DNA from: Anaerolineae bacterium
GTDB lineage: Bacteria > Chloroflexota > Anaerolineae > Anaerolineales > E44-bin32
Assembly (NCBI GenBank): GCA_030598885.1
Contig: JAUVOZ010000002.1
Span: 1-37,629, forward strand
Direction of reading: 5' to 3'
Length of the DNA: 37,629 nucleotides
Shown: positions 3,397-24,726 of the stretch, piece after piece
Layout: every line of letters starts with the position of its first letter
How positions within the stretch are numbered: position 1 is the stretch's first letter
Program-made: the position numbers and the translations under genes
Notes under the pieces: generated by a model
What the model was told of the DNA's origin: nothing
The model's database searches: none
The model's input: the letters and a program-made list of their open reading frames with translations, nothing else

Positions 3397-3461
3397 TAGC
3401 TGCTGAAACTCGTCATACAAGGTGATGCCCGAAATCTTGTTTATCCACGAAGTATTTCTAT

Positions 3462-3497
3462 GAACCTGGTGGTTTACCATCGGGTTCATTAATTTTG
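3462..3497 (+). terminator. Rho-independent-type terminator hairpin after rpoD
   Basis: gaacctggtgg-ttta-ccatcgggttc forms an 11-bp stem (two G-U pairs) with a 4-nt loop at 3462-3487, followed by the T-rich attaattttg. Confidence 0.55.
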
Positions 3498-3609: not shown

Positions 3610-5181
3610 TTATCGTCTTCGAAATATAAGCATCCCCTCAGAACCATAGATATCAGTGGGAATCAAGGTAATTTGTTCATAACTTGCCTTAAAGTTAGCG
3701 TCTTCTAAAAGGGTTTTTCGACCATAAATCTCAAGGATCACTAGGAAATCCGGCTGAAAGTCGCTGATTAGGTTTGAAGGGATGGCATAGTTGATCTCAT
3801 ACATACTTTCTGGCAGTGGGTAGTATTTATCGACTTGAGGTGAGATCAACCCCAGGGTGTCCAGGATACGGGCTTGGGTGTAGTAACCCAACGCGCCGAT
3901 ATCACCAGCAGCCAAGACTTGGTCAGGATGGATTTGATTTCGTAGTTCGATTGCTGCTTGTTGATACAGCAGCTCAAGTTTGATGTAAGCTATTCTCGGA
4001 GATGGGCGTAATAGGCCGTGGTCAGGGCGTGAGGTCCAACCATTTAGGGTGAGTACTACTGCGGCTGTAGCCAGGATATAAGTTGGTAACTTAGATCTCA
4101 AGTCTGAGGCGAGCCGCTCTCCGCCCAGAAAGATTCCAAGGAAGTATAACGGCAGGGGTGGTACAAGGTACCAACGGAAGATCAGTGGGTTGGCGAGAGC
4201 GAAGACGAGCAAGTAAATCCACGGGTATGCCAGAAGGGGCCAAGCGATCAGTTTCTGTCGTAGAAGTTTAAGTGCACCTAATCCGAAGAGAACTGGAAAG
4301 AGCACTAATCCTACGCCAATCCACCATGTGCCAAATACGAGATGACCGAGGAAGGGTGTGGCGTAGTGCTGGAGCAATCGTATCAGCCCGGCTTCTCCTG
4401 GCAGGTGATAGGCTGAGATCTTCGCCAGAATGGAATGCGGGATCGGGTTGCCGTAAACGACGGTGCCGTAGACAAACCACAACAAAGCGGGAATGGCGAA
4501 AACCACCACTTCCTTGGTGCTGATGGGGAGTGGATGAGGGTTGAACTTCTTAGATCCGATTGCGCGCCTTAAACGCTCGACTGCCAAGGGAAGAAGGAAA
4601 AGTAAGGCATCAGGCCGGGTGAGCAGACTGAGGCTACCACATAGCGCAGCCGCGACTGGCTTGTCAATCAAATAGAAGTAAAATGTAGCTGTTCCGAGCA
4701 GTATGAGCAGGCTGGTTTCCATCCCACCAATGGCGAAGGTCACGGACCAAGGTGCTATCGCCCACACTAGAGCAGTAGCCATGCCGGCGCGACGGTAACC
4801 TAACACCTCTGCCATCCTGATGAGCAACCAGCATGTGAGCCCATCAGCCAAGGCGTTGACAAGCAACGCCAAGTAAGGGAAGGGGGCTTGGCTACCGCCG
4901 GTGAATAGACCCAACCCTGCCATCAGTAGGGCATAAACAGGGGTAGTTGTCCCCAACACAGCTTCGCCGGGGTTATAGACCAGCCCATTTCCCGAGAGTA
5001 GGTTTTGGGCGTAGCGGAAGGTGATATAAGCGTCGTCGATAGTACGCGGGCCTGGGAGCAGGCGTGCGACCAGCGCGATGATTATTAAGAAGGTTTCGGG
5101 TTGACACAATCTTCGCAAGCGCACGATAGCATTATACCGACGGGGACAAAGGCGGGAAAGTCCCGACGGTGGAGACTTCAT
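3610..5181 (-). CDS. GTC-1: polytopic membrane protein, GT-C-fold glycosyltransferase-like (ArnT/PMT-like first-loop motif); paralog of GTC-9
   Basis: 523-aa ORF with many hydrophobic helices. IDDAYITFRYAQNLLSGNG follows the first helix; TRPDALLFLLPL and the C-terminal AAGDIGALGYY..ILDTLGLISPQV are shared with 16866-18362. The start is uncertain: the ORF overlaps the divergent ORF at 5101-5181, and in-frame GTG (5124) and TTG (5118, 5109) are alternatives. Confidence 0.75.
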   Translation of the reverse strand: MKSPPSGLSRLCPRRYNAIVRLRRLCQPETFLIIIALVARLLPGPRTIDDAYITFRYAQNLLSGNGLVYNPGEAVLGTTTPVYALLMAGLGLFTGGSQAPFPYLALLVNALADGLTCWLLIRMAEVLGYRRAGMATALVWAIAPWSVTFAIGGMETSLLILLGTATFYFYLIDKPVAAALCGSLSLLTRPDALLFLLPLAVERLRRAIGSKKFNPHPLPISTKEVVVFAIPALLWFVYGTVVYGNPIPHSILAKISAYHLPGEAGLIRLLQHYATPFLGHLVFGTWWIGVGLVLFPVLFGLGALKLLRQKLIAWPLLAYPWIYLLVFALANPLIFRWYLVPPLPLYFLGIFLGGERLASDLRSKLPTYILATAAVVLTLNGWTSRPDHGLLRPSPRIAYIKLELLYQQAAIELRNQIHPDQVLAAGDIGALGYYTQARILDTLGLISPQVDKYYPLPESMYEINYAIPSNLISDFQPDFLVILEIYGRKTLLEDANFKASYEQITLIPTDIYGSEGMLIFRRR

Positions 5182-6771
5182 CCTGGGTTTTTTACAGGAG
5201 GGGTCGTTCTGCTGGCGTTGGCTTTGAAACTAGGTTTATTGGCGCTTGATGTTTTTCCATTTAACGCCGATGAAGCTGTAGTCGGGTTAATGGCGGGTCA
5301 CATTCTTGAAGGACGTTGGCCGGTTTTCTTCTATGGACAGGCGTATATGGGTAGCATGGATGCGTCGCTCGTAGCCATAGGTTTTGCGCTGTTCGGGCAA
5401 AGGGTGATTGTAATTCGTGCAGTCCAAGTCTTGCTCTATCTGGGCACCGTCTTCACAACCATGCAATTAGGCCGGCGGATATTTCGTTCAACGCGAGTGG
5501 CCCTAATTGCCGGGCTGTTGATGGCTATCCCGGCGGTCAATGTCACACTCTACACCACGGTATCGCTCGGTGGTTATGGGGAGATGCTTCTGATCGGCAA
5601 TTTATTACTCCTGCTCGCCCTTCGCATAGCCAAAAGAAAAGATGAGAATTGGCCTTATTTGGTCTGGGGGTTTCTAGCGGGACTTGGTTTTTGGGCATTT
5701 GGAATGACGTTGGTGTATATCCTGCCCGCGGCTGGATTGATAGGGTGGGTGATGTGGCGTGGGACTACACGAAGTCTAATCTTAAAAAGGATCCTTGGTG
5801 CGATCGCCGGTTTTCTCATCGGAGCCGGGCCGTGGATCGCGTGGGCGTTCACTAAAGGACCGACCCAACTTATCCAAGAGCTATTAGGTTCTGCTATCGC
5901 CGGGGTTTCTCCAGGCGGGCCTCTGGAGGTGATCGGTTCGAGGATGCTCAGTTTGTTTGTTTTCGGGAGTACGGTCAGCATAGGTTTACGCCCGCCTTGG
6001 GAAGTGCGTTGGCTGGCAATCCCTCTCCTCCCAGTAGTACTTGTATTTTGGTTGATCGCAATATCGAATGTAATACTCAAATTACGTCAACCCGGACCGG
6101 AAAGGGATGGACGAAGGTTGCTGATCGGAGTATCCATTCTTCTGCTCGTTGGATTTATACTCACCCCCTTTGGAGCTGACCCATCTGGAAGGTATTTTCT
6201 CCCGCTGGCAGCACCTTTGGCGCTATTTGCGGCTGATTTCATATGGGGGTTGAAGCGTAGAATAAACATTTTAATCCTGTCGATTATTCTGCTTTGTGTG
6301 CTCGGGTTTAATTTAATGGGAACTCTCGAATCCGCGTTACGTAACCCACCCGGTCTAACAACTCAATTCAACCCCATTACTCGGATCGATCACAATCATG
6401 ATCAAACGCTGATCGAATTTCTGGAACAAAATGGCGCGCAAAGGGGCTATGCCAATTATTGGGTGTCATACCCGCTTGCCTTCCTTTCGGGTGAACGACT
6501 GATATTTGTTCCCCAATTGCCCTATCATCAAGACTTCCGTTATACAAGTCGGGATAACCGCTATGCTCCTTATGACTACGAGGTCGCCAAGAGCGAACAA
6601 GTGGCATATATCACGTCCAACCACCCAGCGCTCGATGACTACTTACGGTCCTCTTTCAGTGAGCTTGAGTTGACTTGGGAGGAGGCGCGGGTTGGGGATT
6701 ATCAAGTATTTTATCGTCTCTCTCGTGTGCTGGTTCCCGAGGAGATTGGACTGGGGATCACAACACCTTAA
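5101..6771 (+). CDS. GTC-2: polytopic membrane protein, GT39/PMT_2-like glycosyltransferase family (putative)
   Basis: 556-aa hydrophobic ORF with a TTG start in the track. The first helix FFTGGVVLLALALKLGLLAL is followed by FPFNADEAVVGLMAGHILEGRWPVFFYGQAYMGS, a DE motif like ArnT/PMT_2 proteins. A soluble C-terminal ~130 aa follows. Confidence 0.75.
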   Translation: MTQSSQAHDSIIPTGTKAGKSRRWRLHPGFFTGGVVLLALALKLGLLALDVFPFNADEAVVGLMAGHILEGRWPVFFYGQAYMGSMDASLVAIGFALFGQRVIVIRAVQVLLYLGTVFTTMQLGRRIFRSTRVALIAGLLMAIPAVNVTLYTTVSLGGYGEMLLIGNLLLLLALRIAKRKDENWPYLVWGFLAGLGFWAFGMTLVYILPAAGLIGWVMWRGTTRSLILKRILGAIAGFLIGAGPWIAWAFTKGPTQLIQELLGSAIAGVSPGGPLEVIGSRMLSLFVFGSTVSIGLRPPWEVRWLAIPLLPVVLVFWLIAISNVILKLRQPGPERDGRRLLIGVSILLLVGFILTPFGADPSGRYFLPLAAPLALFAADFIWGLKRRINILILSIILLCVLGFNLMGTLESALRNPPGLTTQFNPITRIDHNHDQTLIEFLEQNGAQRGYANYWVSYPLAFLSGERLIFVPQLPYHQDFRYTSRDNRYAPYDYEVAKSEQVAYITSNHPALDDYLRSSFSELELTWEEARVGDYQVFYRLSRVLVPEEIGLGITTP

Positions 6772-6827
6772 TATCTCTTATTATTCCATCAAATTATCTT
6801 TGAGCCTACTTGACAGTCGCATTCATG

Positions 6828-6855
6828 TTGCGCCTTTTAAAGGAGCAAGTATAGT
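6828..6855 (+). promoter_or_regulatory. Weak promoter candidate upstream of GTC-3 (TTGCGC-N16-TATAGT)
   Basis: TATAGT at 6850-6855 has the same -10 hexamer as the rpoD candidate. TTGCGC lies 16 nt upstream. A TTGACA at 6810-6815 is too far away to pair with it. Confidence 0.25.
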
Positions 6856-7061
6856 ACTGTGGTGATCGCTCTATCTAGGCTCCACCATAAGATGCTGCAC
6901 GCTCAGATATGTTTGTAACCGCGTTTGGTTTCTGGCTTTGAAATTGCACCTTGTGGATACAGCGCACCTCAAACCAATAATACGGATCCTACAATGATCA
7001 CCAACCGTTGAGTTGTAAGGTGCGTCAATAAATGGAGTTTTTCTGTTTAGGAGTCTAACCC

Positions 7062-8537
7062 ATGAGTTTCCGAAGGTTAGTAGTGGGTTTGACATTTCTT
7101 GCTGTGTTCACCATGGCCATGCGGGTTTCGGTGGATACGGATACCTGGTGGCATTTACGCGCCGGGGAGTGGATTGTGCAACAACGTCAGATTTTGCGGA
7201 CGGATCCATTCTCGTTGACGCGGCAGGGCGAAACGTGGATATATCCTGGTTGGCTGGCGCAGATTGGCCTATATACAATTCACAACGAGTTCGGCTTTGC
7301 TGGCTTGAACCTCATTACAGCGTTAATGGTTGTCCTCGCGTTTGTGTTCATCTGGCTATTGCTTGATGGTCCATTATTGATGCGAGCCTTTGTTTTACTC
7401 TTAGCGACGACGGTCTCTGGCGTTTATTGGTCAGCGCGGCCTCACATCTTCAGCTTCGCTCTAACGGGAATTTTCTTATGGGTGTTGGCGCGTGCCTATG
7501 CCGGGAGGCGATCTTGGCTTTGGACCCTACCGCCATTAATGGCACTTTGGAGTAACCTGCATGGTGGTTTTGCAATCGGTTTTTTATTGATTGCGGTATA
7601 CCTGGTTGGGGAAGTTCTCGAGGCGTCGCTGTCAGTATTGCATCGCCACGCAACTGTAAGTGAGGTTTGGCGTGAGAGACGTCCCATAATTCAAGCATTG
7701 GTCATTGTTGGTCTTGCCTGTGCGGTAGCAGTTGCGATCAACCCCCATGGTCTCCAGATGTTGCTCTATCCCTTCAAGACGATTTCGGTCAGTACTTTGC
7801 AGGCTTACATTCAAGAGTGGCAATCTCCTGACTTCCACCGTTTAGAGGTCCAGCCCTTCTTATGGATGCTTATCCTATGTATGGTTGTCTTGGCGCTCTC
7901 AGACAAACGAAAACGGGCGGTTGAGCTTGTATTAGTTGCGGGTTTCGCTTATCTAAGTCTGGTTGCCGCGCGAAATATCGCCCTATTTGCGCTTGTGTCC
8001 GCACCGGTTGTAGCGCGACATGGATACGCAGCTGTGAAACCACTCCTTAAAAACATGACCACAGGACCTCAATTACCAGAACGCCGTGCTCAGGGGATTA
8101 ATATTGTACTCTTCTCCATTGTTACCATCGCGGCTTTGATTAAGATCTCCGTCCCGCTTAGTGATCAGGTCAACCAGGAAGCCATCGCTAATCAAGTTCC
8201 TGTCGAGGCGATTGACTACCTTCGCCATCAACCATCACTTGGGAATCTTTTAAACTCCTACAATTGGGGCGGATATGTGATTTGGGAGCTCTATCCGAAA
8301 TACCTCAGCTTTGTGGATGGACGGACTGATCTTTTCAATGATGAGATTCTCGAAGCTTATCTCGCCGTTTGGCGTGCCGAGCCAGGTTGGGAGGATATGA
8401 TCGACCGCTGGGACATAAGGCTCGTGCTGCTTGAGCCGTACGCACCACTGGCCAGGGTGTTGCAGGATTCTGGCTGGGAGCAGTTATACGCTGATGATCA
8501 AGCGGTTGTGCTAGGGCAGGGTGTTGAGCAGGAATGA
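7062..8537 (+). CDS. GTC-3: polytopic membrane protein of an uncharacterised family, GT-C-like by motif position
   Basis: 491-aa ORF with AGGAG 9 nt upstream of the ATG. VDTDTWWHLRAGEWI follows the first helix; SNLHGGFAIGFLLI and many further helices are present. The family assignment is inference. Confidence 0.7.
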   Translation: MSFRRLVVGLTFLAVFTMAMRVSVDTDTWWHLRAGEWIVQQRQILRTDPFSLTRQGETWIYPGWLAQIGLYTIHNEFGFAGLNLITALMVVLAFVFIWLLLDGPLLMRAFVLLLATTVSGVYWSARPHIFSFALTGIFLWVLARAYAGRRSWLWTLPPLMALWSNLHGGFAIGFLLIAVYLVGEVLEASLSVLHRHATVSEVWRERRPIIQALVIVGLACAVAVAINPHGLQMLLYPFKTISVSTLQAYIQEWQSPDFHRLEVQPFLWMLILCMVVLALSDKRKRAVELVLVAGFAYLSLVAARNIALFALVSAPVVARHGYAAVKPLLKNMTTGPQLPERRAQGINIVLFSIVTIAALIKISVPLSDQVNQEAIANQVPVEAIDYLRHQPSLGNLLNSYNWGGYVIWELYPKYLSFVDGRTDLFNDEILEAYLAVWRAEPGWEDMIDRWDIRLVLLEPYAPLARVLQDSGWEQLYADDQAVVLGQGVEQE

Positions 8538-8701
8538 GGCAGTGGTGGCTAGCGTTTAAAACTACGGCTTTACGGGTACGATTCATACAAGTTATGCTGG
8601 TGAGGGTCAGACATAGAGCGCTCGGTTATACAGCATGTCGTGAGTAGTATGAGCGCTTGCGAATGTGCTAGTTGAGAAGGATCTAAGGGGTAAAAGGTCT
8701 T

Positions 8702-10183
8702 ATGTTTGCCAAGCTTTCGCCCATGCTACGATCTCAAAAAGTAACTACCTGGCTTCTATGGTGTCTGATTATCATCTATATCACATTTTTTACTGTCGTA
8801 TCATTCCTACGGCACGATCGATTTGAAACGGCCGCGTATGATCTGGGTATCTTTGACCAGGTTGTGTGGTTTACATCACAAGGCAAAATACTTAAGCTTA
8901 CTAACCTACCTGATAATTATAGCTTATTGAACGTTCATTTCGCGCCGATCCTTATTCCCCTCTCTTTATCCTACCTCGTTGCACCTACACCCAAAACGCT
9001 GTTATTGTTGCAGTCGGTTTCGCTGGGATTAAGTGCTCTCCCAATTTTTTGGTTGGCAAAGCAAAAGCTAAATGTCTGGGCTGGATTGGCCTTTACCCTG
9101 ATATATCTTCTCTTTCCTGCATTGGAAGGTGCTAATTTGTTTGATTTCCATCCCGCAACTCTAGCTGTTGTATTTCTGGCCTTTGCTTATTGGTACCTGC
9201 AATGCAGAAATTACAAGATGTTCCTGTTATTTGCTTTACTGATCATGAGCTGTAAAGAGGAGCTATCGCTATACGTGCTTTTGATGGGTCTCTATGCTGC
9301 TGTAATAAATAGAGATTGGAAGATAGGCATAGGCATCTTCATCCTAGGCTTGGTTGTTTTTCTGACGGTTAATCTAGTTGTGATGCCGACCTTCAGTCAC
9401 ACCGGTCAGATAAACTTTCATCTTTCTCGATATTCTGCGCTGGGAGATACAGCAGGTGAGATACTCCAGACACTACTAAGTCGACCAAAATATGTATGGG
9501 AATACATTGCTTCTGATAAGAACCGTCTGTACTACCTGAGGAGTCTGTTGGCTCCGACGGCCTATCTTTCTTTGCTCGACCCAGCCACCCTGTTTACAAT
9601 AATCCCAACGGTGGCTATTAATATCCTATCCAATTGGAATCCAACCTACGCACTTGATCGATTTCACTATACAGCGCCCGCGGTACCCTTCATCGTTGCT
9701 GCAGCCATCAATGGGATGGCTCGGTTGGTTAAACTTATCCAGCGTTTGTACAAGCTACGGCATACTTTCATCATTGCACTATTTATCTGCGCAACTGTGG
9801 CTGTTGCAGTTGTGTATCACGTTCGCTTTGGTCATACGCCGATGGGTGGTAACTATTACTTGCCCGCTCAGGAACCGCGCCACACAGTTGCACGCCAACT
9901 GCTAGATCTGATTCCACCAGATGCTATTGTTTCGGCTCAAGCCAACCTGAACCCGCATCTAACACACCGTGTTGTCACCTATTCATTTCCAAAAATCGAG
10001 GACAGCCGAGAAGGTCCTGCCACATATATCGCTCTTGACACTATTGGAAATATCTTCCCCCTTTGGCCGGACGACTACAACACTCTGGTTAGCGAACTGT
10101 ACAATGGAGGAGACTATGAAGCGATCTTTGAGCAAGACGGATATCTCCTATTGCGTCGAATATCTGGGGCGGATGACCTATGA
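8702..10183 (+). CDS. GTC-4: DUF2079-like polytopic membrane protein
   Basis: 493-aa ORF. HDRFETAAYDLGIFDQVVWFTSQG after the first helix matches my recollection of the DUF2079 signature (fDLgifdQ). Hydrophobic throughout, with a soluble C-terminal tail. Confidence 0.75.
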   Translation: MFAKLSPMLRSQKVTTWLLWCLIIIYITFFTVVSFLRHDRFETAAYDLGIFDQVVWFTSQGKILKLTNLPDNYSLLNVHFAPILIPLSLSYLVAPTPKTLLLLQSVSLGLSALPIFWLAKQKLNVWAGLAFTLIYLLFPALEGANLFDFHPATLAVVFLAFAYWYLQCRNYKMFLLFALLIMSCKEELSLYVLLMGLYAAVINRDWKIGIGIFILGLVVFLTVNLVVMPTFSHTGQINFHLSRYSALGDTAGEILQTLLSRPKYVWEYIASDKNRLYYLRSLLAPTAYLSLLDPATLFTIIPTVAINILSNWNPTYALDRFHYTAPAVPFIVAAAINGMARLVKLIQRLYKLRHTFIIALFICATVAVAVVYHVRFGHTPMGGNYYLPAQEPRHTVARQLLDLIPPDAIVSAQANLNPHLTHRVVTYSFPKIEDSREGPATYIALDTIGNIFPLWPDDYNTLVSELYNGGDYEAIFEQDGYLLLRRISGADDL

Positions 10184-10324
10184 ATCGAGAAAATATGGTT
10201 AGACTGGTATTCTTACAGGTAAAACTTGACGGTGCGATTTGGTTCGGTGACTTCCGACATTCTTGGTTAAATTCAGTTACGCCGCAAATTCTCTGAAGAA
10301 GAGAAGAACTATACGAGGTGTGCA

Positions 10325-11545
10325 TTGAATATCTCCTATCCAAATTGGCTTAGGATGGGATTATTGTTTCTCACCCTGGCGGTGCTGATTGGCCTTGGGT
10401 TTGCCAATTATCAGTTTTCTCTGTTGTCGCCTGGCGGGAATGATTTTCTCGCGCGCTGGGTGGGAGCTCACTACTGGGTGGTGAAGGGCGTCAATCCCTA
10501 CGACCCGCAGGTTAGCCTGGCTGCCCAGGAGATGATTTACGGCCGACTGGCTGATCCAGATAAAGGGGAAGATATTGCGCACTTCGTCTACCCTTTGACA
10601 GCGATGATCTTCTTCGCACCCTTTGGCTTGCTCCCTTACCCTATCGCACGAGCTGTTTGGATGACTCTTTTGGAGATTAGCCTGCCACTTCTAGTTCTGA
10701 TAGGCGTCGAATTGGCACGATGGAAACCATCTCGGAAACTATTGGCTTTCTTAATGATCTTTTCGGTCGTGTGGTATCACGGTTTTCGTTCGGTGATCGT
10801 CGGTCAATTCGCCGTGATCGAGGCGCTCCTCATGGCAGCAGTTCTGCTGTCCATTCAGAGGCGGCAAGATAGCCTGGCAGGAATTCTATTGGCACTTTCT
10901 ATCGCTAAGCCACAGATGTCGGTGCTCTTGATACCCTTTGTCCTTTTATGGGCAGCCCGATCCAGGCGGTGGGAGCTCATTATGTGGACACTCGGAGCGA
11001 TGACGACCCTGGTTGTGGTTTCTCTGGCCCTGATCAATGATTGGCCCTTGCTTTGGCTCCGTCAGTTGGTTGAGTATTCAGACTATACATTCAATCCTAC
11101 GCCGGTCTCGATCCTTGCAGGGGTTATACCAGTCGCTTCGAGAGCTCTCACATATGGTCTCACAACGCTGTTGTTAGTGTATTTGCTCTGGGAGTGGGTG
11201 CAAGCGATGGGCAAAGGGGATCGTTGGTTCCAATGGACATCAGCCCTAACGATTGTGCTTACGAATTTAATCCCCCTTCGCACTGCGACAACCCACTATG
11301 TCGTGCTTCTGCCAGCTCTGTGTTTGATCTTCTGTGCATGGGATGAACGCTGGGGCAAGAAAGGAATTGTGTTGATCATATTCTCCCTATCCGTGATCCT
11401 CATCGGTTTGTGGGCGCTCTTCATGATATCGGTAGAGGGTGCTATAGAGAATGAGATTATGTATTTGCCGCTTCCCATTCTTAGCCTACTTGGTCTGTGG
11501 TGGTCTCGGTGGTGGATCGTTCGCGTTTCATCGTTGCGGATATAG
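10325..11545 (+). CDS. GTC-5: GT87/DUF2029-like membrane glycosyltransferase (PimE-type family, putative)
   Basis: 406-aa hydrophobic ORF with a TTG start and GAGGTG upstream. GGNDFLARWVGAHYWVVKGVNPYD after the first helix resembles the DUF2029/GT87 first-loop motif. Confidence 0.7.
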   Translation: MNISYPNWLRMGLLFLTLAVLIGLGFANYQFSLLSPGGNDFLARWVGAHYWVVKGVNPYDPQVSLAAQEMIYGRLADPDKGEDIAHFVYPLTAMIFFAPFGLLPYPIARAVWMTLLEISLPLLVLIGVELARWKPSRKLLAFLMIFSVVWYHGFRSVIVGQFAVIEALLMAAVLLSIQRRQDSLAGILLALSIAKPQMSVLLIPFVLLWAARSRRWELIMWTLGAMTTLVVVSLALINDWPLLWLRQLVEYSDYTFNPTPVSILAGVIPVASRALTYGLTTLLLVYLLWEWVQAMGKGDRWFQWTSALTIVLTNLIPLRTATTHYVVLLPALCLIFCAWDERWGKKGIVLIIFSLSVILIGLWALFMISVEGAIENEIMYLPLPILSLLGLWWSRWWIVRVSSLRI

Positions 11546-11650
11546 CAAAACCATGGAAGTGGTGGAAAAATCATCGCGGAAATGGATTTCTCCTTCTGCG
11601 TTTATCTACCGAAGTTTCGATTTCTGCGATGTTTAGTTATGTGATAGAAG

Positions 11651-13672
11651 TTGAGTCCCGAGCAGTGGATAGTGATGACCGCTAGAAAACAGATATTCGC
11701 TTGGATAGTGCTTACTTGGATGTTTGTCACAATTGTGGCTTATTACATCTTCCATAAGCCCATAAGTATTGACCAGGTCCTGTTGATGGGGAAATCCGTT
11801 TGGGGAATAGTGGTCGCCAGTTCGGTGATTCTAGCTGGGGCTGCGATTGGGAGGCTGCTCTTCTCTCGCTTATTGCAAGGATTCACTCCGCGCTCCATTG
11901 TGCTTTTAGCATTGGAGGCGGGTCTGGGTCTGGGAACACTTAGTTTAGTGTGGTTGCTGGTGGGTCTTATCGGTGGATTCGAAACGATCCTAGCTTGGGC
12001 AGTGTTAATCGTGATTGGCTTTGGTGCTCGACATCAGATCCTCGGTTGGTGTCGAGACATGGTTGTCGTAATAATAAAGGTAATTCCCAATACGCGGACA
12101 GAGACTTGTTTAGCAGCTTTCGTCTTTTTCATGATCATTGTAGCTTTGCTTAGTGCCCTGGCTCCAACTTCAGCTTGGGATGCCCTGCTTTATCACCTAA
12201 CAGGGCCTAAGGCGAATATTGCCTCGGGTAGGCTTGAAATAAATCCATGGCTGCCTGAAACTGGGTACCCTCAAGGGTTGGAGATGCTCTATACATGGGT
12301 GATACTTTTGGGTTCGTCCAGAGCTGCAGGCGTTCTACACTGGTTCTTTGGTTTCTTAACTTTACTCTTGGTATGGCAGTGGGGCGAGGAACTAGTCGAC
12401 AGCGAGACAGGGTGGTTGGGATGCGCAATCCTGGTCAGTGCGACCACATTTACAACTATGATGGGTAAAGCCTATGTTGACGTAGCCACAATTCTTTTTA
12501 CTGCCCTTGGCATTGCCGCAATAAAGCATTGGAGAGACACTGAACTGGATGCCGCCTTGGTGGTTTGTGGATTTTCAGCCGGCTTCGCCTTTGGAACTAA
12601 GTACACTGGTGTGGTGATTGGAATAGGGTTGGCTGTATTGATCGCTATTGCACAACCACGCCGGGTGATGAGAAATCTAATGGTTTTTGGGGTACCTGCT
12701 ATTGTCGTAAGTACCCCTTGGCTATTTAAAAATGCCCTACTAGCTGGAAATCCGACTTATCCTTTCTTTTTCAACGGTCTTGGTTGGGATAGCATCCGCG
12801 CTGATTGGTTCAGCCAATTAGGTACAGGGTTGCTGTACTCGGCCCCCTTGAAACTTATAGCCGCGCCTCTCATTATGACAATCGTTGGTAAGGAGGGCAT
12901 AGAAACCTGGCATGCAACTTTTGGACCGTTATTCATTATGCTTGTGCCGTTGATCGCAATACGATGGAAGCATCATACATGTCGAACATGGCTTCGGGAC
13001 GCGCTCATATTTTTCATTGTACTTTACTTGATCTGGCTTTACGGCGCTGCGGTTTCTAGGTTGATGATCCAACCTCGCTTCCTTTTTCCTGCATTGCCGC
13101 CATTGGCAGTGCTGTCTGCTATGGCTTATGGCTCGTTGCGTTCACTTGAGAATACATCTTTTGCCATCCATCGTGTCTCTGGCTTTATTATCGCGCTGGT
13201 GCTGTTCTTGACTGCTTTCAGATTCGGCATTGATATGCTGCAGCGTCAAGATCTTCCTGTATTGACAGGAGCTCTTTCGGAAGAGGACTACCTTTACCAT
13301 CGCCTCGGCTGGCATTATGCGGCTGTGCAAAAGATAGGTGACTTGCCAGATGGCTCGCGCGTACTTTTCTTATTCGAACCACGAAGCTACTATTGCCCAT
13401 CTCACCGTTGTCTGCCTGATGGGATATTAGATATCTGGTACCACGCTCGGCGGCAGGGCGGGACAGCCGCTAGCATGGCTCAGGATTGGCGCGAGGAGAA
13501 TGTTTCCCATGTGCTCTTCTACGCGTTAGGTGCACAGACATTACGCGAAGCTGGCAAGGATCCCTTCACAGAGGAGGATTGGGTGGAGTTGGACCGTCTT
13601 CAGTCTAATCAGTTGAAGCTGGTCGAAAACTTTGGCGATGTCTATATGCTTTATGAATTACCACCTAGATGA
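11651..13672 (+). CDS. GTC-6: large polytopic membrane protein, PMT_2/ArnT-like core preceded by an extra N-terminal multi-helix module
   Basis: 673-aa ORF (TTG at 11651; in-frame ATG at 11675). The acidic/aromatic motif SAWDALLYHLTGPK sits at about residue 175, after several helices. A soluble C-terminal ~130 aa follows. Confidence 0.7.
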   Translation: MSPEQWIVMTARKQIFAWIVLTWMFVTIVAYYIFHKPISIDQVLLMGKSVWGIVVASSVILAGAAIGRLLFSRLLQGFTPRSIVLLALEAGLGLGTLSLVWLLVGLIGGFETILAWAVLIVIGFGARHQILGWCRDMVVVIIKVIPNTRTETCLAAFVFFMIIVALLSALAPTSAWDALLYHLTGPKANIASGRLEINPWLPETGYPQGLEMLYTWVILLGSSRAAGVLHWFFGFLTLLLVWQWGEELVDSETGWLGCAILVSATTFTTMMGKAYVDVATILFTALGIAAIKHWRDTELDAALVVCGFSAGFAFGTKYTGVVIGIGLAVLIAIAQPRRVMRNLMVFGVPAIVVSTPWLFKNALLAGNPTYPFFFNGLGWDSIRADWFSQLGTGLLYSAPLKLIAAPLIMTIVGKEGIETWHATFGPLFIMLVPLIAIRWKHHTCRTWLRDALIFFIVLYLIWLYGAAVSRLMIQPRFLFPALPPLAVLSAMAYGSLRSLENTSFAIHRVSGFIIALVLFLTAFRFGIDMLQRQDLPVLTGALSEEDYLYHRLGWHYAAVQKIGDLPDGSRVLFLFEPRSYYCPSHRCLPDGILDIWYHARRQGGTAASMAQDWREENVSHVLFYALGAQTLREAGKDPFTEEDWVELDRLQSNQLKLVENFGDVYMLYELPPR

Positions 13673-13763
13673 AAACGGGCGTATCATTTCATCTGTTTAG
13701 GACCTCAGTCAGTTCTAAAACTCGTATCTTGAGGGGAAAGATTGTGAAGGGTTGAGCTTGTAA

Positions 13764-15293
13764 ATGATTCTGAAGAGAATGATCGCCCGCATAGATAAGG
13801 TTGGACAGGTTCTTCGAAACCCCAAATTAGAGATCATCCTTCTTGTGTTTCTGCCCCTTGCTCTTTTGCTTCGCATCCCCAATCTACAAAGCAAGCCAAT
13901 TTGGTACGACGAAGCCTTCAGTATTTTTCTATCTCGACAGCCCTTGGCGGAAATCATATCAGGAACAGCAGCCGACACCATGCCTCCCTTGTACTACTTT
14001 CTGATGCATGGTTGGATGTTCTTAAACCGCCAGATTTGGTTCTTGCGAACCCTTAACGTCATTATTAGTTTGGGAATCGTTACCCTTGTCTATGTTGCAA
14101 CATCGAGTTGGTTGGGCCAGTCTGCTGGCTTGTGGGCAGCGCTGTTCACTGCCGTCTCACCCTTGCAGATCTATCATGCCCAAGAATTACGGATGTACGC
14201 GTTGCTGACGCTCGCTTTGTTAGGGTACATTCATTTTTTTATGCGGCTTTGGGGTGAACGGCAATCGATTAGTGATACTTGGACGAATTGGCTCGGACTG
14301 ATACTGTGTGGTACGACGGCGATGTATTCCCACAACCTGGCGATCTTTACTATGGTCGTGCCAAATATTCTCTTGCTGGTCCGACGTGATTGGCAATTCC
14401 AAGTTCGCCTGATCCTAGCTCAATTTGCCATTGGCTTGGCGTGGCTGCCGTGGCTTGGATTTGTCCCCATGCAGATCGCGAAAATCCAGACCGCCTTCTG
14501 GACACCACAACCAGGATTGCTTCAGATTGTGCAAACCATAGTCACCTTTCACACAAACCTGCCTGTGCCTGATTGGTTCTTAACGATCTCGGTCTTCACT
14601 AGTTTGCTGGTGATGGCACTGGTTTTCTACGAGGTGGTGAGGTCCGCTCGAGGGAATAAGATGGTATATGCACTGTTATTGTTTACGCTTGTCCCGCCCT
14701 CGCTTCTATTCATCATGTCATACCTCATGCGTCCGTTGTTTGTACCGCGCGCCATTATGCTTTCATCACTGACATATTATGCGCTTATGGGCCGTGCGGT
14801 GAGCCACGCACGCAATCGGGGTATGGCTTTGATTTTATGTCTGCTTTTCGTCCTCCCTGCTCTGGTCGTGTTGCCATCGCAATACACCTTCGAAAGCTTC
14901 CCGCGTTCTCCATACAAGACAGCAGCTAAAGACCTTGCGATCTCGTTCGTAGATGGGGATATGATTGTCCACGATAACAAACTGAGCTATTTCCCGATGC
15001 ATTATTACCAGCCACAATTACCTCAATTCTTTCTTGCGGACCCACAAGGATCTCACAATGATACACTTGCACCGGGCTCGCAATCGGCTCTCGGTATCTT
15101 CCCCATTCCGGATTTGGAGACAACTGTTGGAAACACCAGGCGTGTATGGTTTGTAGTATTTGAACGTGCCATTGAAGAGTACGTTAGCACAGGTCATTCA
15201 GATCATCCGCAGTTGGCATGGCTTCATAAGAAGTTTAGTATGGCTGGTTTGCGCACGTTTAACGATTTGCGGGTCTATGAGTTTATTCGCTAA
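13764..15293 (+). CDS. GTC-7: GT39/PMT_2-like membrane glycosyltransferase (putative)
   Basis: 509-aa ORF. KPIWYDEAFSIFLSRQPLAEIISGTAADTMPPLYYFLMHGW is the classic lW.DEa.s first-loop motif of the ArnT/PMT_2 family. Confidence 0.78.
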   Translation: MILKRMIARIDKVGQVLRNPKLEIILLVFLPLALLLRIPNLQSKPIWYDEAFSIFLSRQPLAEIISGTAADTMPPLYYFLMHGWMFLNRQIWFLRTLNVIISLGIVTLVYVATSSWLGQSAGLWAALFTAVSPLQIYHAQELRMYALLTLALLGYIHFFMRLWGERQSISDTWTNWLGLILCGTTAMYSHNLAIFTMVVPNILLLVRRDWQFQVRLILAQFAIGLAWLPWLGFVPMQIAKIQTAFWTPQPGLLQIVQTIVTFHTNLPVPDWFLTISVFTSLLVMALVFYEVVRSARGNKMVYALLLFTLVPPSLLFIMSYLMRPLFVPRAIMLSSLTYYALMGRAVSHARNRGMALILCLLFVLPALVVLPSQYTFESFPRSPYKTAAKDLAISFVDGDMIVHDNKLSYFPMHYYQPQLPQFFLADPQGSHNDTLAPGSQSALGIFPIPDLETTVGNTRRVWFVVFERAIEEYVSTGHSDHPQLAWLHKKFSMAGLRTFNDLRVYEFIR

Positions 15294-16869
15294 AGCATCA
15301 CACCGCTGGATCATTTCCCTGCTGACCATAGGGCTTGTTGTGAATCTATTCGCAGCGTACTGGGTCCGGTCGCCTGGCTACATGGACGCCGAGTACTATT
15401 ACACCACAGCCCAGCGGTTAGTAGATGGTGCAGGTTTTACTGAGCCGTTCTTATGGAACTATCTCGATTATCCGATAGGACTGCCTCATCCATCTCATCT
15501 CTATTGGATGCCGCTGACGACGATAGTGTCGGCTGGACCAATGGTCCTTTTCGGTAAAAGTTTTCGTGCAGCCCAGCTTCCTTTTCTAATGCTTGCCGCT
15601 ACCCTACCTGCTATGACCGCGCTTCTAGCCCTTAAGCTTCATGGAAACCAGAGGTGGGCTTGGAGGTCAGGGCTAATCGCTTCTTTACCAGGTTTCTTTC
15701 TACCGTACCTTGTGACGACAGACACATTTATCCTCTACGCTTTAATCGGTGGCGCCGCGCTGTGGGTCATGGCTGATGCTGCCCAAAACCAGAGCGCATC
15801 ACGTTGGCTAGTGGCTGGTTTATTGATAGGGCTTGGTCATCTGACTCGAGCCGACGGGTTTCTTTTGCTGGTACCGGCGATGATCGCTTTGTTGTGGATT
15901 GAGCAAGGGAAGGGGAGAGCTTTCATATTCCTTATGATTGGATACTTGTTGCCGACAGTGCCTTGGTTTGCAAGGAATTTGATCGTCACTGGGAGCGTCC
16001 TTCCCCCTGGAAATGGGCGTGTGCTCTGGCTGCTGTCCTACGATGAATTGTTCTCCTATCCGGCTGATATTCTGACCCCTGCTCGCTGGTTGAGCTCCGG
16101 TTTTCTCTCGATCTTCAAAGCACGGTTTCAAGCTTTGGGGATCAATATCCAACGGCTAATCGGAGAAAATGGCATTGTTTTCTTGGGTCCTTTTATGGCC
16201 TTAGGAGCTCATCGTCTCTGGAAGCAGCCGCTCGTCCGACTGGCGACAATCTACCTCGTGCTGCTGCTAGGTGTGATGAGTTTTATTTTTCCGTATGCCG
16301 GTTCCTATGGGGGCTTCTTTCACTCCAGCGCAGCACTAATGCCGATCTTGTTTGTCCTGGCACCGGTTGGTCTTGATACTGCTATCGCATGGGGGGCGAA
16401 GAAAAGAGGTTGGAACCTCCGGGAAGCAGAGGTAATTTTCGGAGCCGGCACAGTGGCGCTAGTGGGTATCTTAACCGTCGGTCTAGTCTGGACCAGGGTT
16501 ATTGGGCCAACGCCAAGTGAACCACGATGGGCTTACTCCCTGCGTACATATCAGGAAGTTGGGGAGCTTCTATGCCAGTTAGAAGAATCTCCCGGTGTGG
16601 TGGCAATTAACAATCCTCCAGGATTCTACCTGGCAACCAGCATGGAATCAGTGGTCATCCCCAATGGACCGATAGAGACGTTACGCCAAGTGGTTGAGCG
16701 CTACAGTGTGGACTGGGTGGTTCTCGATGCCAATCGGCCAGTCGATTTGGCGGCGTTGTACAATGCACCTGAAACCGTGCCTTGGCTTGAGTTAGCTGAC
16801 ACTCTGCAAGACTCACAAGGTCGAGACATCTATCTGTTGAAGGTTTCCCTGGAGATATCCCAGCCATGA
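15277..16869 (+). CDS. GTC-8: polytopic membrane protein, GT-C-like; related to GTC-1 and GTC-9
   Basis: The track ORF starts at 15160 (TTG), inside the previous gene. The ATG at 15277 (MSLFAKASHRW...) gives a normal N-terminus and a 17-nt overlap with the GTC-7 stop. Motifs are GYMDAEYYYTTAQRLVDGAGF and LTRADGFLLLVP. Confidence 0.72.
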   Translation: MSLFAKASHRWIISLLTIGLVVNLFAAYWVRSPGYMDAEYYYTTAQRLVDGAGFTEPFLWNYLDYPIGLPHPSHLYWMPLTTIVSAGPMVLFGKSFRAAQLPFLMLAATLPAMTALLALKLHGNQRWAWRSGLIASLPGFFLPYLVTTDTFILYALIGGAALWVMADAAQNQSASRWLVAGLLIGLGHLTRADGFLLLVPAMIALLWIEQGKGRAFIFLMIGYLLPTVPWFARNLIVTGSVLPPGNGRVLWLLSYDELFSYPADILTPARWLSSGFLSIFKARFQALGINIQRLIGENGIVFLGPFMALGAHRLWKQPLVRLATIYLVLLLGVMSFIFPYAGSYGGFFHSSAALMPILFVLAPVGLDTAIAWGAKKRGWNLREAEVIFGAGTVALVGILTVGLVWTRVIGPTPSEPRWAYSLRTYQEVGELLCQLEESPGVVAINNPPGFYLATSMESVVIPNGPIETLRQVVERYSVDWVVLDANRPVDLAALYNAPETVPWLELADTLQDSQGRDIYLLKVSLEISQP

Positions 16870-18362
16870 AGTGGGTCGGGTTGGATACGTTTAGGACACG
16901 AGTGCTTCTGTTCATCGCACTGACTTGTCTGTCTGTTGGGGGTTTCTTATGGGTCAGCGCGGACACATATGGTTTAGGTTTCCCATTAGACGATGCATGG
17001 ATCCACCAAACCTACGCTCGTAATCTGGCAGAGCGAGGCGAATGGGCGTTTGTGCCCGGTCAACTAAGTGCTGGGTCGACCGCACCGCTTTGGACTGGAA
17101 TACTAACCTTAGGAAATTTATTGGGTGTCGAGAGCAAAGTATGGAGCTATTTCCTCGGGGGGTTGCTGCTAGCGATTACGGCATGGTTTTGTAGTCAGTG
17201 GATTGCTCTTCGAGGCTCTAATCGATGGTGGTGGAAAGTGTGGGTTGGAGTGCTGATCATATCTGAATGGCATTTAGTTTGGGCGGCTGTGTCGGGTATG
17301 GAGATCTTGGCACTGACCTTGGTAGTCGTGCTGGTTCTCGCCTGGCTTGAATCTCAGAAATGGAGTGCGTTGGGAATAGGTGCGTTGATCGGCTTAGGGG
17401 TATGGATCCGTCCTGATGCCCTCTCCCTTCTCTTGCCAGTAGTTTGGCACACATTCTTCCGACATCGCCATCAACTTCGCCAAACCATAGCTACTCTGGG
17501 TACTGTTGGAGTGGGGGTAGCGATCTTGATCGTTCCTTATTTAATGTTTAATCGCGTCTTAGCGGGTGCTTGGTGGCCAAGCACTTTTTACGCCAAGCAA
17601 GCGGAGTATATGGTTCATAGGTCGGTTCCGCTCCTCTTTCGCTTGGTTGATCAGCTCACATCTCCACTTGTTGGTGTAGGAGCGGTGTTGGTCCCCGGGA
17701 TAATTATCACGTCGGTCTTAGCGATATCCCAGGGCGCTTGGAGGAAGCTTGCGCCGATAATTTGGGCGTTGTCATACATGGGGATGTATGCGATGCTGCT
17801 GCCGGTTAATTATCAGCATGGTCGTTATGCGATGCCAGTTATCCCGATCGTACTCGTCGTGGGTTTGGAGGGACTACTGATTAGCATTTGGCCGGTGGCT
17901 GAAAATATAGTTCGGCGGGTAATTTCTCGCGTCTGGTTGTACACTATACCTGTGCTCACATTTACATTCTGGTTGCTTGGTGGCCGTTCATACGCTCAGG
18001 ACGTTGCCATCATTGAGACCGAGATGGTAGCTACTGCGCGCTGGCTATCGGTCAATACTGAGGCGGGGGCTTTGGTGGCAGCTCATGACATTGGTGCTTT
18101 AGGCTACTTCGGTGAACGCCCTATAGTCGATATGGCTGGGTTGATTTCCCCGGAGGTGATTCCAATCCTGCGCGACGAAGCCGCGTTGTCAAGGCTCCTA
18201 GATTCCCGAGGGGCAGAGTACCTGATGACATTCCCAGGATGGTATCCATGGCTTGTGGAACAGGCGTATCCGATTTATTCCACAAGTGCTCCATACAGCG
18301 TTAAAGCGGGTGGAGAGAACATGGTGATCTATAAATGGCGTCAAGAAGGGTTTGCCCCATAA
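16866..18362 (+). CDS. GTC-9: polytopic membrane protein, GT-C-like; paralog of GTC-1
   Basis: 498-aa ORF with an ATGA start/stop overlap with GTC-8. Motifs are FPLDDAWIHQTYARNLAERGEW, IRPDALSLLLPV and AAHDIGALGYFGERPIVDMAGLISPEV. Confidence 0.78.
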   Translation: MKWVGLDTFRTRVLLFIALTCLSVGGFLWVSADTYGLGFPLDDAWIHQTYARNLAERGEWAFVPGQLSAGSTAPLWTGILTLGNLLGVESKVWSYFLGGLLLAITAWFCSQWIALRGSNRWWWKVWVGVLIISEWHLVWAAVSGMEILALTLVVVLVLAWLESQKWSALGIGALIGLGVWIRPDALSLLLPVVWHTFFRHRHQLRQTIATLGTVGVGVAILIVPYLMFNRVLAGAWWPSTFYAKQAEYMVHRSVPLLFRLVDQLTSPLVGVGAVLVPGIIITSVLAISQGAWRKLAPIIWALSYMGMYAMLLPVNYQHGRYAMPVIPIVLVVGLEGLLISIWPVAENIVRRVISRVWLYTIPVLTFTFWLLGGRSYAQDVAIIETEMVATARWLSVNTEAGALVAAHDIGALGYFGERPIVDMAGLISPEVIPILRDEAALSRLLDSRGAEYLMTFPGWYPWLVEQAYPIYSTSAPYSVKAGGENMVIYKWRQEGFAP

Positions 18363-18411: not shown

Positions 18412-19104
18412 ATGGACAAGATAGGGCTTATCATAGTCGACGATCATCCCCTCTTTCGCGAAGGAGTGCGCAATGTGCTCGAAGCAGAAGAGGATCTTGA
18501 AGTTCTAGCCGAGGGCACGAGCGGTGATCAGGCTCTGCAACTTGTACGTGAGCTACGACCACGCGTGGCGCTAGTAGATGTTAATCTACCCAACATGAAT
18601 GGCATGCAGGTTACTCGCCAAATATTAGCTGAGCGGTTAAACACCGCCATCGTTTTAGTTACAGCATATGATGACGTTGAGCAGGTATTGCACGCATTTC
18701 GTGCCGGGGCTGCGGCTTATTGTTCGAAGGATGTCGAAGCAGGTAAATTGGTGGATGTTATTCGACATGTCGCCCGCGGTTTCTATGTCGTTGGCGACCA
18801 GGTTTATGACGCGGCAGGTCTCGAACAATGGCTTTCACGTGGGGTGGAGACTGTTCGTCGCCCTCATCTCGATGGCGATGTGGAAGCCTTCACTCCGCTC
18901 TCTCCCCGGGAGATGGAGATTCTTCAGTATGTCACACGGGGCATGTCCAACAAAGAGATCGCTGCCCGCTTAGGTATCAGCCACCAGACAGTGAAGAATC
19001 ATATGACGTCAATCCTGCATAAATTGGACGTTGAAGATCGCACTCAAGCCGCGGTATACGCTTTACGCCATGGCTGGGTACGTCTACAAGACACACGAAA
19101 ATAA
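18412..19104 (+). CDS. NarL/LuxR-family two-component response regulator (REC + LuxR HTH)
   Basis: REC motifs IIVDDHPLFREG, VALVDVNLPNMNG and YCSKD. LuxR HTH: LSPREMEILQYVTRGMSNKEIAARLGISHQTVKNHMTSILHKLDVEDRTQAA. The ~40-aa linker between the domains is unusually long. Confidence 0.9.
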   Translation: MDKIGLIIVDDHPLFREGVRNVLEAEEDLEVLAEGTSGDQALQLVRELRPRVALVDVNLPNMNGMQVTRQILAERLNTAIVLVTAYDDVEQVLHAFRAGAAAYCSKDVEAGKLVDVIRHVARGFYVVGDQVYDAAGLEQWLSRGVETVRRPHLDGDVEAFTPLSPREMEILQYVTRGMSNKEIAARLGISHQTVKNHMTSILHKLDVEDRTQAAVYALRHGWVRLQDTRK

Positions 19105-19116
19105 ATCTGAGGCACT

Positions 19117-20166: not shown

Positions 20167-20423
20167 TCGCGATATTCTGGGTTTGAGAGAGCGAATTTTC
20201 CAGATAGATCACGTCTGAGTGCTATCGGGTGAGATCTTTATCCAACCTGAGACAATGGGGGAGTGTTAATAACATCCTCCTATATACAAGTTAGAACTCC
20301 GAAACTGTGATGATCGACGGATTGTGGGGGATAATCGGATAGGAGGAATATAGTTAACAAACTCAATTGAAGCTGGTAAATAAGTCCTAAAATAAGGGGA
20401 TTCTGTATCGGAAATAGGTCCTA

Positions 20424-20452
20424 TTGAATCTTACTGCAGCTAAGCATATAAT
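20424..20452 (+). promoter_or_regulatory. Strong sigma-70-type promoter candidate for the pilin gene (TTGAAT-N17-TATAAT)
   Basis: TTGAAT at 20424-20429 and TATAAT at 20447-20452 with an exact 17-nt spacer, ~54 nt upstream of the flp ATG. Confidence 0.55.
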
Positions 20453-20505
20453 GAATCGTGCCCGGGTAAAATCGGGTAATTTCGAAGAGAAGGGAGGTGA
20501 AAGGT

Positions 20506-20652
20506 ATGTTATATGCACCAAAGGAAAGAGGCCAAGGGCTTGTAGAGTATGCGTTGATCCTTGTTTTAGTAGCAGTCGTTGTGATCGTCATTTTAGCACT
20601 ACTCGGGCCCGCCATCGGCAATGTATTCAGCAATATCATCAGCAACATCTAG
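20506..20652 (+). CDS. flp: Flp/Fap-family type IVb (Tad) prepilin, 48 aa
   Basis: Below the ORF-track size cutoff; translated by hand as MLYAPKERGQGLVEYALILVLVAVVVIVILALLGPAIGNVFSNIISNI. It matches the Flp processing motif G/XXXXEY (ERG|QGLVEY) followed by a hydrophobic helix. GGAGG lies 8 nt upstream, and the gene sits directly upstream of cpaB-cpaE-cpaF-tadBC. Confidence 0.88.
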   Translation: MLYAPKERGQGLVEYALILVLVAVVVIVILALLGPAIGNVFSNIISNI

Positions 20653-20706
20653 TTAGCCGATGGAGTTGAAAAAAGGGCAACGTCTCGATTGTTAAGAATG
20701 CCCTCG

Positions 20707-20731: not shown

Positions 20732-20779
20732 TTGTCACCTGAGTTCAATATATTAAATTAACGCCCTTTGGCGTTCACC

Positions 20780-24723: not shown

Positions 24724-24726
24724 CTA

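Follow-up and report, generated by a model that had tools for sequence, protein, structure and literature searches.

Nine consecutive genes for large, polytopic membrane proteins, here called GTC1 to GTC9, fill positions 3610 to 18362 of a 37,629-nucleotide stretch of contig JAUVOZ010000002.1 from an Anaerolineae bacterium (order Anaerolineales, phylum Chloroflexota); we refer to this whole stretch as the window. A GT-C (type C glycosyltransferase) fold or family was shown for eight of the nine proteins, the ninth (GTC4, a DUF2079 protein) being linked to this group indirectly, and the gene order is mostly conserved in related genomes. At a probability of roughly 0.6, we favor the reading that the locus may direct the serial, extracytoplasmic assembly of an envelope glycan from lipid-phosphate-linked sugars, analogous to the synthesis of mycobacterial lipomannan (LM), lipoarabinomannan (LAM), and arabinogalactan. 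An earlier note on the sequence of this window had delimited the nine open reading frames (ORFs), and the coordinates and lengths it gave, with one gene divergent and eight co-directional, proved accurate. No paper describing the locus was found in a search of the full-text literature.

Families and folds of the nine proteins

GTC1 (3610 to 5181; 523 amino acids, aa) lies on the reverse strand and is divergently transcribed; the other eight genes are on the forward strand, namely, GTC2 (5101 to 6771, 556 aa), GTC3 (7062 to 8537, 491 aa), GTC4 (8702 to 10183, 493 aa), GTC5 (10325 to 11545, 406 aa), GTC6 (11651 to 13672, 673 aa), GTC7 (13764 to 15293, 509 aa), GTC8 (15160 to 16869, 569 aa as a maximal ORF), and GTC9 (16866 to 18362, 498 aa). 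The earlier note had taken the nine for GT-C-type glycosyltransferases rather than transporters, and Pfam, matches to AftB, and structure searches bear this out, with the link of GTC4 being the indirect one. Four proteins are of the PMT_2 type (PF13231; GT39/GT83-like): against a gathering threshold of 26.1 bits, GTC2 scored 30.5, GTC6 31.0, and GTC8 35.8 bits, and GTC7 fell slightly under it at 23.1 bits, with all 21 members of the GTC7 family matching PMT_2 (best E value, 1.6e-16). GTC2 also has weak matches to PMT/ArnT models in NCBIfam, the best of them to a protein O-mannosyltransferase model and far under its cut-off. GTC6 has a weak match to the LIC_10190 family and begins with an additional helical module of some 150 aa; its orthologues carry PMT_2 and DUF8201. 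GTC5 belongs to GT87, the PimE-like family (PF09594; E = 4e-15, 56.6 bits against a gathering threshold of 25), and weakly matches the PRK13375 mannosyltransferase model over residues 79 to 360, while the PimE-type NCBIfam model reached a best score of 23.8 bits against a cut-off of 413.

GTC1 and GTC9 form a family of their own. GTC1 has no Pfam match, nor does any of 25 members of the GTC9 family, and a comparison of the two families with hhalign identified them as full-length paralogues (probability 99.7%, E = 1.6e-25). As a single sequence, GTC1 matched AftB (Protein Data Bank, PDB, entry 9dlf) at E = 2.7e-5 with phmmer, and a profile of 22 GTC1 orthologues matched it at E = 8.9e-10 over residues 33 to 244 and GPI mannosyltransferase 1 at 3.5e-5. 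With the AftB equivalog model (NF041481), GTC1 scored 23.8 bits, in the N-terminal region only, against a cut-off of 1050. The homology of GTC1 and GTC9 to AftB is thus real but distant, and no sugar specificity can be read from it; one GTC9 homologue is named "arabinofuranosyltransferase" in one Joint Genome Institute (JGI) source.

GTC3 has no match in Pfam or NCBIfam, and every one of its more than 1812 homologues is labelled "hypothetical." The family is very large, numbering 34,627 representative clusters when matches at E ≤ 1e-3 are counted and 8,826 when E ≤ 1e-30 is required. Structures were predicted with AlphaFold2 (AF2) and searched with Foldseek for GTC3 and GTC9, the other seven proteins being assigned by sequence family. 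The GTC3 model, made from a 26-sequence alignment, had a predicted local distance difference test score (pLDDT) of 88.9 and a predicted TM-score (pTM) of 0.89, the GTC9 model had values of 90.0 and 0.91, and both models are all-helical up to about residues 390 to 400. All 19 PDB matches of GTC3 at E ≤ 0.001 were GT-C enzymes (STT3, DPY19, AglB, PglB, ArnT, AftA, and AftD). GTC9 matched STT3, ArnT (TM-score of 0.60 by query length, TMq, and 0.56 by target length, TMt), ALG9, AftD, AftA, PglB, and PimE, and its model superposed on AftB (9dlh) with a root mean square deviation of 5.5 and a TMq of 0.60. Across the two models, every match at E ≤ 1e-3 was a GT-C enzyme, with TMq values of 0.46 to 0.63, whereas no transporter came up below E = 0.04 and those beyond it had TM-scores near 0.1. 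Invariant features of GTC3 are D27, W30, H31, EWQSPDFH, and VDGRTDLF. The invariant EWQSPDFH stretch (residues 252 to 259) is the sole segment of the model below a pLDDT of 50; going by the model, it may resemble the flexible external substrate loop of PglB and ArnT. An invariant NWGG follows the last helices of GTC3, at a position comparable to that of the WWDxG motif of oligosaccharyltransferases.

GTC4 matches DUF2079 (PF09852) over the entire profile (positions 1 to 459 of 459; E = 3.6e-76, 257.5 bits against 28.2). Among 19 of its homologues, three also match PMT_2 (best, 3.3e-7) and three match EpsG. From these family relationships GTC4 is probably a GT-C protein, and we take DUF2079 to be placed by Pfam in its GT-C clan. 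Comparison of the DUF2079 family with the PMT_2-type GTC7 family by hhalign gave a weak match (E = 0.0043, probability 8%), as did comparison of the GTC3 family with the GTC7 family (E = 0.34); neither result is counted here as evidence.

At least four distinguishable families had been counted in the run; this proved an undercount, since there are five (PMT_2, GT87, DUF2079, GTC1/GTC9, and GTC3). In an all-against-all BLASTP of the nine proteins, only GTC1 and GTC9 were detectably paralogous (2.6e-15). Recent tandem amplification is therefore rejected as the origin of the run, which brings together at least five old families. All nine proteins stay below the equivalog cut-offs of NCBIfam; they are therefore not orthologues of characterized enzymes, and no sugar specificity can be assigned to them. 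Sequence searches of the PDB with single GTC3, GTC4, and GTC9 sequences, and with profiles of the GTC9, GTC7, and GTC4 families, returned nothing useful.

Acidic motif and predicted topology

Each of the acidic motifs quoted in the earlier note is present directly after the first hydrophobic segment; in GTC6, additional hydrophobic segments at the N terminus (ahead of residue 180) precede it, as had been claimed, and the motif begins at residue 176. The nine proteins have 7 to 16 hydrophobic segments each by hydropathy, and their N termini ahead of the first segment are rich in Arg and Lys, which by the positive-inside rule places the N terminus inside the cell; by the same rule, the acidic motif is predicted to face outward. 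The conservation expected of this first-loop motif was also found, with the Asp or Glu residues kept in 95 to 100% of the sequences in the orthologue sets. D49 and D50 of GTC1, D57 and E58 of GTC2, D177 and H182 of GTC6, and D76 of GTC8 are 100% conserved among orthologues, and D40 and R44 of GTC5 are conserved in at least 95%. D49 and E50 of GTC7, D42 and D43 of GTC9, and D47 of GTC4 are invariant in their families, and in the 26-sequence alignment of GTC3, D27 is invariant and D25 is kept in at least 90%.

Gene layout within the run

Intergenic gaps in the nine-gene run are all shorter than 300 nucleotides (nt), and short antisense ORFs that lie within the nine genes (5655 to 6080, 15820 to 16152, and 16655 to 16966) were taken to be spurious. 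The maximal ORFs of GTC2 and GTC8 overlap neighboring genes. The real start of GTC2 may lie downstream of its maximal-ORF start, and GTC8 probably starts at the ATG at 15277, giving a protein of 530 aa, because its orthologues are mostly about 515 to 530 aa long. The stop of GTC8 and the start of GTC9 overlap by 4 nt, and the maximal ORFs of GTC7 and GTC8 also overlap. A hairpin and terminator scan found no convincing terminator inside the run; promoter and terminator counts did not differ from chance, and the sole strong hairpin (3460 to 3489) lies outside the run.

Conservation of the cluster and turnover of cassettes

To place the run among related genomes, one genome per species was scanned; at least 582 species have a relative of GTC3, and 80 loci (numbered with an L below) were kept and compared with the window proteins by tblastn. 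Co-linearity in 67 of the 80 species loci shows that the arrangement of the run is not due to chance; the scattering of the genes in relatives that the earlier note had named as counterevidence was not found. The recurrent order is sigma-70 gene, GTC1 (reverse strand), GTC2, GTC3, a variable slot, GTC5, GTC6/7, GTC8, and GTC9, followed by a response regulator, a kinase, and CpaB/Tad genes. Where both flanks were available, 25 of 42 loci carry at least six of the families. Among 62 loci with the upstream flank, GTC1 was found in 44, GTC2 in 50, and the sigma-70 gene in 42; among 48 with the downstream flank, GTC5 and GTC8 were each found in 33 and GTC9 in 29, these downstream counts being lower bounds, as inserts push later genes past the 10-kb flank. 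GTC3 is the most conserved gene of the cluster, and the core families are each about 45 to 65% identical across many species in a fixed order. Named homologues of the cluster proteins come from Anaerolineae, Anaerolineales, or Anaerolineaceae metagenome-assembled genomes (MAGs). One locus (L023, JAIWHF010000093.1) is labelled "Methanosarcinales archaeon" and has a sigma-70-GTC1-GTC2-GTC3 block at 53 to 70% identity; this Anaerolineales block is probably a binning contaminant of that MAG.

The cluster is not intact everywhere. In the complete genome CP070708.1, GTC2 and GTC3 lie at about 0.94 Mb and a GT87-GTC6-7-8-9 block at about 2.96 Mb, so that two modules stand some 2 Mb apart, and more distant lineages keep only GTC3, GTC8, and GTC9, beside the kinase and Tad genes. 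Nor are the nine genes one fixed unit: GTC4 is accessory, and GTC1 is replaced in the 87% relative. GTC4 was found in none of the 48 related loci with enough downstream flank, and the identity of its homologues drops from 95% straight to 50%; GTC4 is an accessory insert in the variable slot between GTC3 and GTC5.

The 87% relative (L086), which is the nearest of the long loci, has a different co-directional GT-C-like gene with a TDDAYYYF motif at the GTC1 site (5917 to 7473) and, at the GTC4 site (11544 to 16484), a Wzy_C-TPR protein, a 364-aa protein, and a GT87-like protein instead. Such cassette replacement is typical of surface-glycan loci. Elsewhere the slot holds a GDP-mannose-dehydratase-type epimerase, Wzy_C-TPR proteins, or extra PMT_2 or GT87-like genes. 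Recurrent slot proteins without a Pfam match were also seen (L033, 11763 to 13022; L040, 4638 to 6407; L002, 11500 to 12366; and L086, 14210 to 15304). The 364-aa slot protein of L086 has an N-terminal helix followed by DTDPDG and, further on, YDGQFVYY, and it looks like a further, unclassified protein of the GT-C type.

Partner genes in the window and in relatives

In the window, a Pfam search of ORFs of at least 100 aa found no GT-A or GT-B enzyme, lipid-sugar synthase, glycan flippase, or sugar-nucleotide gene, as had been claimed, and a phosphonate-type system was the only ABC system found. The absence of partner enzymes had also been put forward as a feature of the system, and this holds in this window only, as the clusters of relatives carry some. 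A GT2 protein of 314 to 332 aa lies inside or adjoining the cluster in L003/L004, L013-L015, and L072 (about six related loci); in NCBIfam it comes closest to AglJ, dolichyl-phosphate hexose transferase, PpgS, ArnC, and PgfS, models that all stand for polyprenyl-phosphate glycosyltransferases, and it is of the Ppm1-like type. In the GT2-bearing loci, a FrhB-like protein comes after the GT2; L013-L015 and L072 add a methyltransferase, and the three loci L013-L015 a TIGR00374 flippase-like protein. L086 has a Polysacc_synt (Wzx-type) gene about 9 kb upstream, at the upstream edge of the locus, and the Wzy_C-TPR slot protein of relatives is ligase/polymerase-like. The GT2 and flippase-like genes are what a lipid-phosphate-sugar model would predict, and they make a circumstantial case for the use of such donors. 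Together with the epimerase genes, they also contradict the suggestion that the pathway acts entirely outside the cytoplasm.

Comparison with known systems

The earlier note held that the locus does not match O-antigen, capsule, teichoic-acid, or known protein-glycosylation loci and was aware of no characterized pathway of this kind. A close analogue does exist in the GT-C arrays of the Corynebacteriales for LM/LAM and arabinogalactan. In these arrays (PimE, MptA-D, AftA-D, and EmbA-C), polyprenyl-phosphate sugars serve as donors for many different polytopic GT-C enzymes that work one after another at the outer face of the membrane, polyprenyl-phosphate mannose being the donor for LM/LAM (PMC3123699, PMC3485146). 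The locus resembles them in its GT87/PimE-type and AftB-like members and in the conserved acidic motif of the first loop. It differs in its host, as the Chloroflexota are a phylum without a known mycolate-type envelope; in its form, which is one tight, largely co-directional cluster of eight to nine GT-C genes with few or no GT-A/GT-B genes; in lacking Emb-type enzymes (about 1000 aa, with large C-terminal carbohydrate-binding domains); and in having no equivalog-level match to the mycobacterial enzymes and two families without a Pfam model. Serial extracytoplasmic glycosylation by GT-C enzymes is thus already known as a kind of system, and what is new here is its occurrence in this phylum, a compact operon made up almost entirely of GT-C genes and kept throughout an order, and two families (GTC3 and GTC1/GTC9) without Pfam or above-cut-off NCBIfam models.

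The widespread three-component logic of a GT2 polyprenyl-phosphate-sugar synthase, a flippase, and then a GT-C enzyme (PMC11127046) is the second point of comparison. The clusters of relatives share the GT2 and flippase-like logic of such systems (GtrA/GtrB/GtrC, CsbB/GtcA/YfhO, and ArnC/ArnEF/ArnT); however, the known ones have one GT-C enzyme per synthase of its own and add a single side branch, whereas the run has nine GT-C genes and the window holds neither GT2 nor flippase. ArnT and the PMT enzymes (PMT_2/PMT; GT83/GT39) are approached by GTC2, GTC6, GTC7, and GTC8 through PMT_2, and ArnT is also a top structural match for GTC9. Unlike those enzymes, the proteins here have PMT_2 scores around the cut-off, NCBIfam equivalog scores of 16 to 19 bits against cut-offs of 567 to 800, and no MIR domains, and GTC6 has its extra N-terminal module.

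The oligosaccharyltransferases STT3, PglB, and AglB gave the best overall structural matches to the GTC3 and GTC9 models (TMq, 0.52 to 0.63), with which they share a GT-C membrane core and a small C-terminal extracytoplasmic domain. Against this, the C-terminal domain is much smaller here, identity is 9 to 15%, and there are no genes for lipid-linked-oligosaccharide assembly nearby. Neither WWDxG nor W[WYF]DxG occurs in any of the nine proteins, and an oligosaccharyltransferase identity was rejected on the absence of the former. Genes of a Wzy-dependent locus (Wzx, Wzy, a chain-length regulator, an initiating phosphoglycosyltransferase, and cytoplasmic glycosyltransferases) were not found in the window.

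Proposed mechanism and alternative explanations

Under the reading that we favor, GT2 synthases encoded elsewhere in the genome would load sugars onto polyprenyl phosphate at the cytoplasmic face, and the lipid-sugars would then be flipped across the membrane by proteins whose genes would likewise lie elsewhere. Each GT-C protein, with its catalytic Asp or Glu in the first extracytoplasmic loop, would transfer a sugar to a growing acceptor on the outer face, so that seven to eight conserved, divergent families (GTC1, 2, 3, 5, 6/7, 8, and 9) would add different residues or linkages. The product would be a single, conserved glycan of the envelope, of either the lipoglycan or the wall-linked heteropolysaccharide type, and the variable slot (DUF2079 here; Wzy_C-TPR and GT87-like proteins in close relatives) would supply lineage-specific decoration.

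Several points weigh against this reading. Pfam finds no lipid-sugar synthase or flippase in the window, and we infer what the donors, the acceptor, and the product are and that the enzymes act jointly or in sequence. For DUF2079, and with it GTC4, the evidence for a GT-C fold is indirect. Contiguity is evidently not required, because the cluster is split in CP070708.1, and the set may comprise several sub-pathways, since GT-C cassettes are exchanged among close relatives and the more distant loci are reduced to GTC3-GTC8-GTC9. Some of the synteny could also be inherited gene order and not functional coupling, as the flanking sigma-70 gene and regulator-kinase-Tad genes are conserved as well.

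One alternative is that the locus serves protein glycosylation, with PMT_2-type or STT3-like GT-C enzymes O- or N-glycosylating secreted S-layer, sheath, or pilus-associated proteins. Four of the proteins fall in a Pfam family named for protein O-mannosyltransferases, a protein O-mannosyltransferase model is the best, if far sub-threshold, NCBIfam match of GTC2, oligosaccharyltransferases head the structural matches of both GTC3 and GTC9, and a Tad pilus locus is kept as a neighbor of the cluster across the order. PMT_2, however, also includes ArnT-like lipid-modifying enzymes, and Foldseek gives similar scores to ArnT, AftA, AftB, and AftD, whose acceptors are lipids or glycans. To our knowledge, eight different GT-C families would far exceed the known bacterial protein-glycosylation systems. 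We therefore consider this explanation unlikely, and the glycosylation of pilin that the earlier note had raised is likewise unlikely, as the sequence of the neighboring 51-aa Flp precursor contains no N-X-S/T sequon and the WWDxG motif is missing from all nine proteins.

A less probable alternative, which we regard as quite unlikely, is that the nine are independent three-component decorators (cf. GtrC, YfhO, and ArnT) that add side branches to products made elsewhere and are clustered by co-regulation or descent. The turnover of cassettes at both ends and in the slot, the split cluster of CP070708.1, and the reduced GTC3-8-9 form of some lineages would all fit such decorators, as would GT2 and flippase-like genes that behave as a mobile cassette in only about six loci and the prevalence of the three-component paradigm (PMC11127046). 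Retention at about 45 to 65% identity in a fixed order across species nevertheless fits fixed, non-redundant roles better, and the overlaps of the adjacent GTC7, GTC8, and GTC9 ORFs suggest co-expression. That most of the nine are instead transporters or structural membrane proteins in which the acidic motif is coincidental, as the lack of Pfam matches for GTC1, GTC3, and GTC9 and the empty PDB profile searches for the GTC9, GTC7, and GTC4 families might be taken to mean, is highly improbable given TM-scores of about 0.1 (E > 0.04) for transporters against 0.5 to 0.6 for GT-C enzymes, the coverage of the remaining proteins by Pfam and AftB matches, and the invariance of the motif residues.

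Serial assembly of an envelope glycan, if true, would mean that a second, unrelated phylum shares the "mycobacterial" strategy of making complex glycans outside the membrane. More tentatively, a GT-C glycopolymer could be a defining, near-universal component of the Anaerolineales envelope, made by a dedicated operon of seven to eight families as a counterpart of LM/LAM/arabinogalactan; we hold this broader proposal to be doubtful. Under it, the polymer would possibly be the material of unexplained extra envelope layers, and there might be coordination between it and the DegS/DegU-like two-component system and Tad pilus encoded next to the cluster. One source describes a Chloroflexota envelope that stains Gram-negative and appears layered, without lipopolysaccharide or β-barrel assembly machinery (BAM) genes, and gives the suggestion that polysaccharide or protein makes up the extra layers (PMC13319060, citing Sutcliffe 2011). 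A GT-C cluster conserved across the order is a concrete set of genes with which ideas about this envelope material can be tested. Genetics is hard in the Anaerolineales, and the function of the locus is one that we infer. In anaerobic digesters, sediments, and activated sludge, where Anaerolineales abound, the surface chemistry of filaments affects granulation and bulking. The GTC3 family is among the larger GT-C families without a Pfam or NCBIfam model, and the two missed families are targets for annotation, CAZy-type classification, and structural work.

Flanking genes and other features of the window

Upstream of the run, a primary-type sigma-70 gene (2101 to 3396, forward strand; Pfam regions 1.1 to 4) is a conserved anchor and is followed by the hairpin at 3460 to 3489, which has a 13-bp stem. 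The approximately 1.26 kb upstream of this gene (838 to 2100) contain no ORF of at least 80 aa, no Rfam family, and no tRNA; this region may represent a long leader, the remains of a gene, or an RNA that lacks annotation. Across the entire window, searches for Rfam families and tRNAs gave no matches.

Downstream, Pfam identifies a NarL/LuxR-type response regulator (18412 to 19104) and a DegS-like HisKA_3 kinase (19117 to 20166), both on the forward strand. The regulator follows GTC9 in 29 of 48 loci, with identity mostly of 81 to 97% and of 52 to 75% in the more distant ones. We regard the two genes as conserved downstream neighbors and, at most, candidate members of the system. Between the kinase and CpaB lies the gene for the 51-aa Flp-type pilin (MKGMLYAPKERGQGLVEYALILVL...; 20497 to 20652, forward strand), and the Tad locus is complete, with CpaB (20861 to 21982), a CpaE-like ATPase fused to a receiver domain (22018 to 23271), CpaF (23314 to 24723), and TadB/TadC (24727 to 26734). 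The regulator-kinase-Tad block (18412 to 26734) stands directly downstream of the cluster across the order (L022, L026, L027, L029, L041, L046, L052, L054, L080, and L085), even where only GTC3 or GTC3-8-9 remain; the GT-C proteins are 40 to 65% identical, compared with mostly 81 to 97% for the regulator. This neighborhood may reflect co-regulation, a functional link, or merely inherited gene order.

Directly after TadC is a gene for a ComF-like protein with a double zinc ribbon and a phosphoribosyltransferase domain (26756 to 27511, forward strand), and the gene for hibernation-promoting factor follows it (27624 to 28193). Further along, a 381-aa ORF (28217 to 29362, forward strand) has no match in Pfam or NCBIfam, and it is abutted by a convergent HNH endonuclease ORF of 167 aa on the reverse strand (29363 to 29866).

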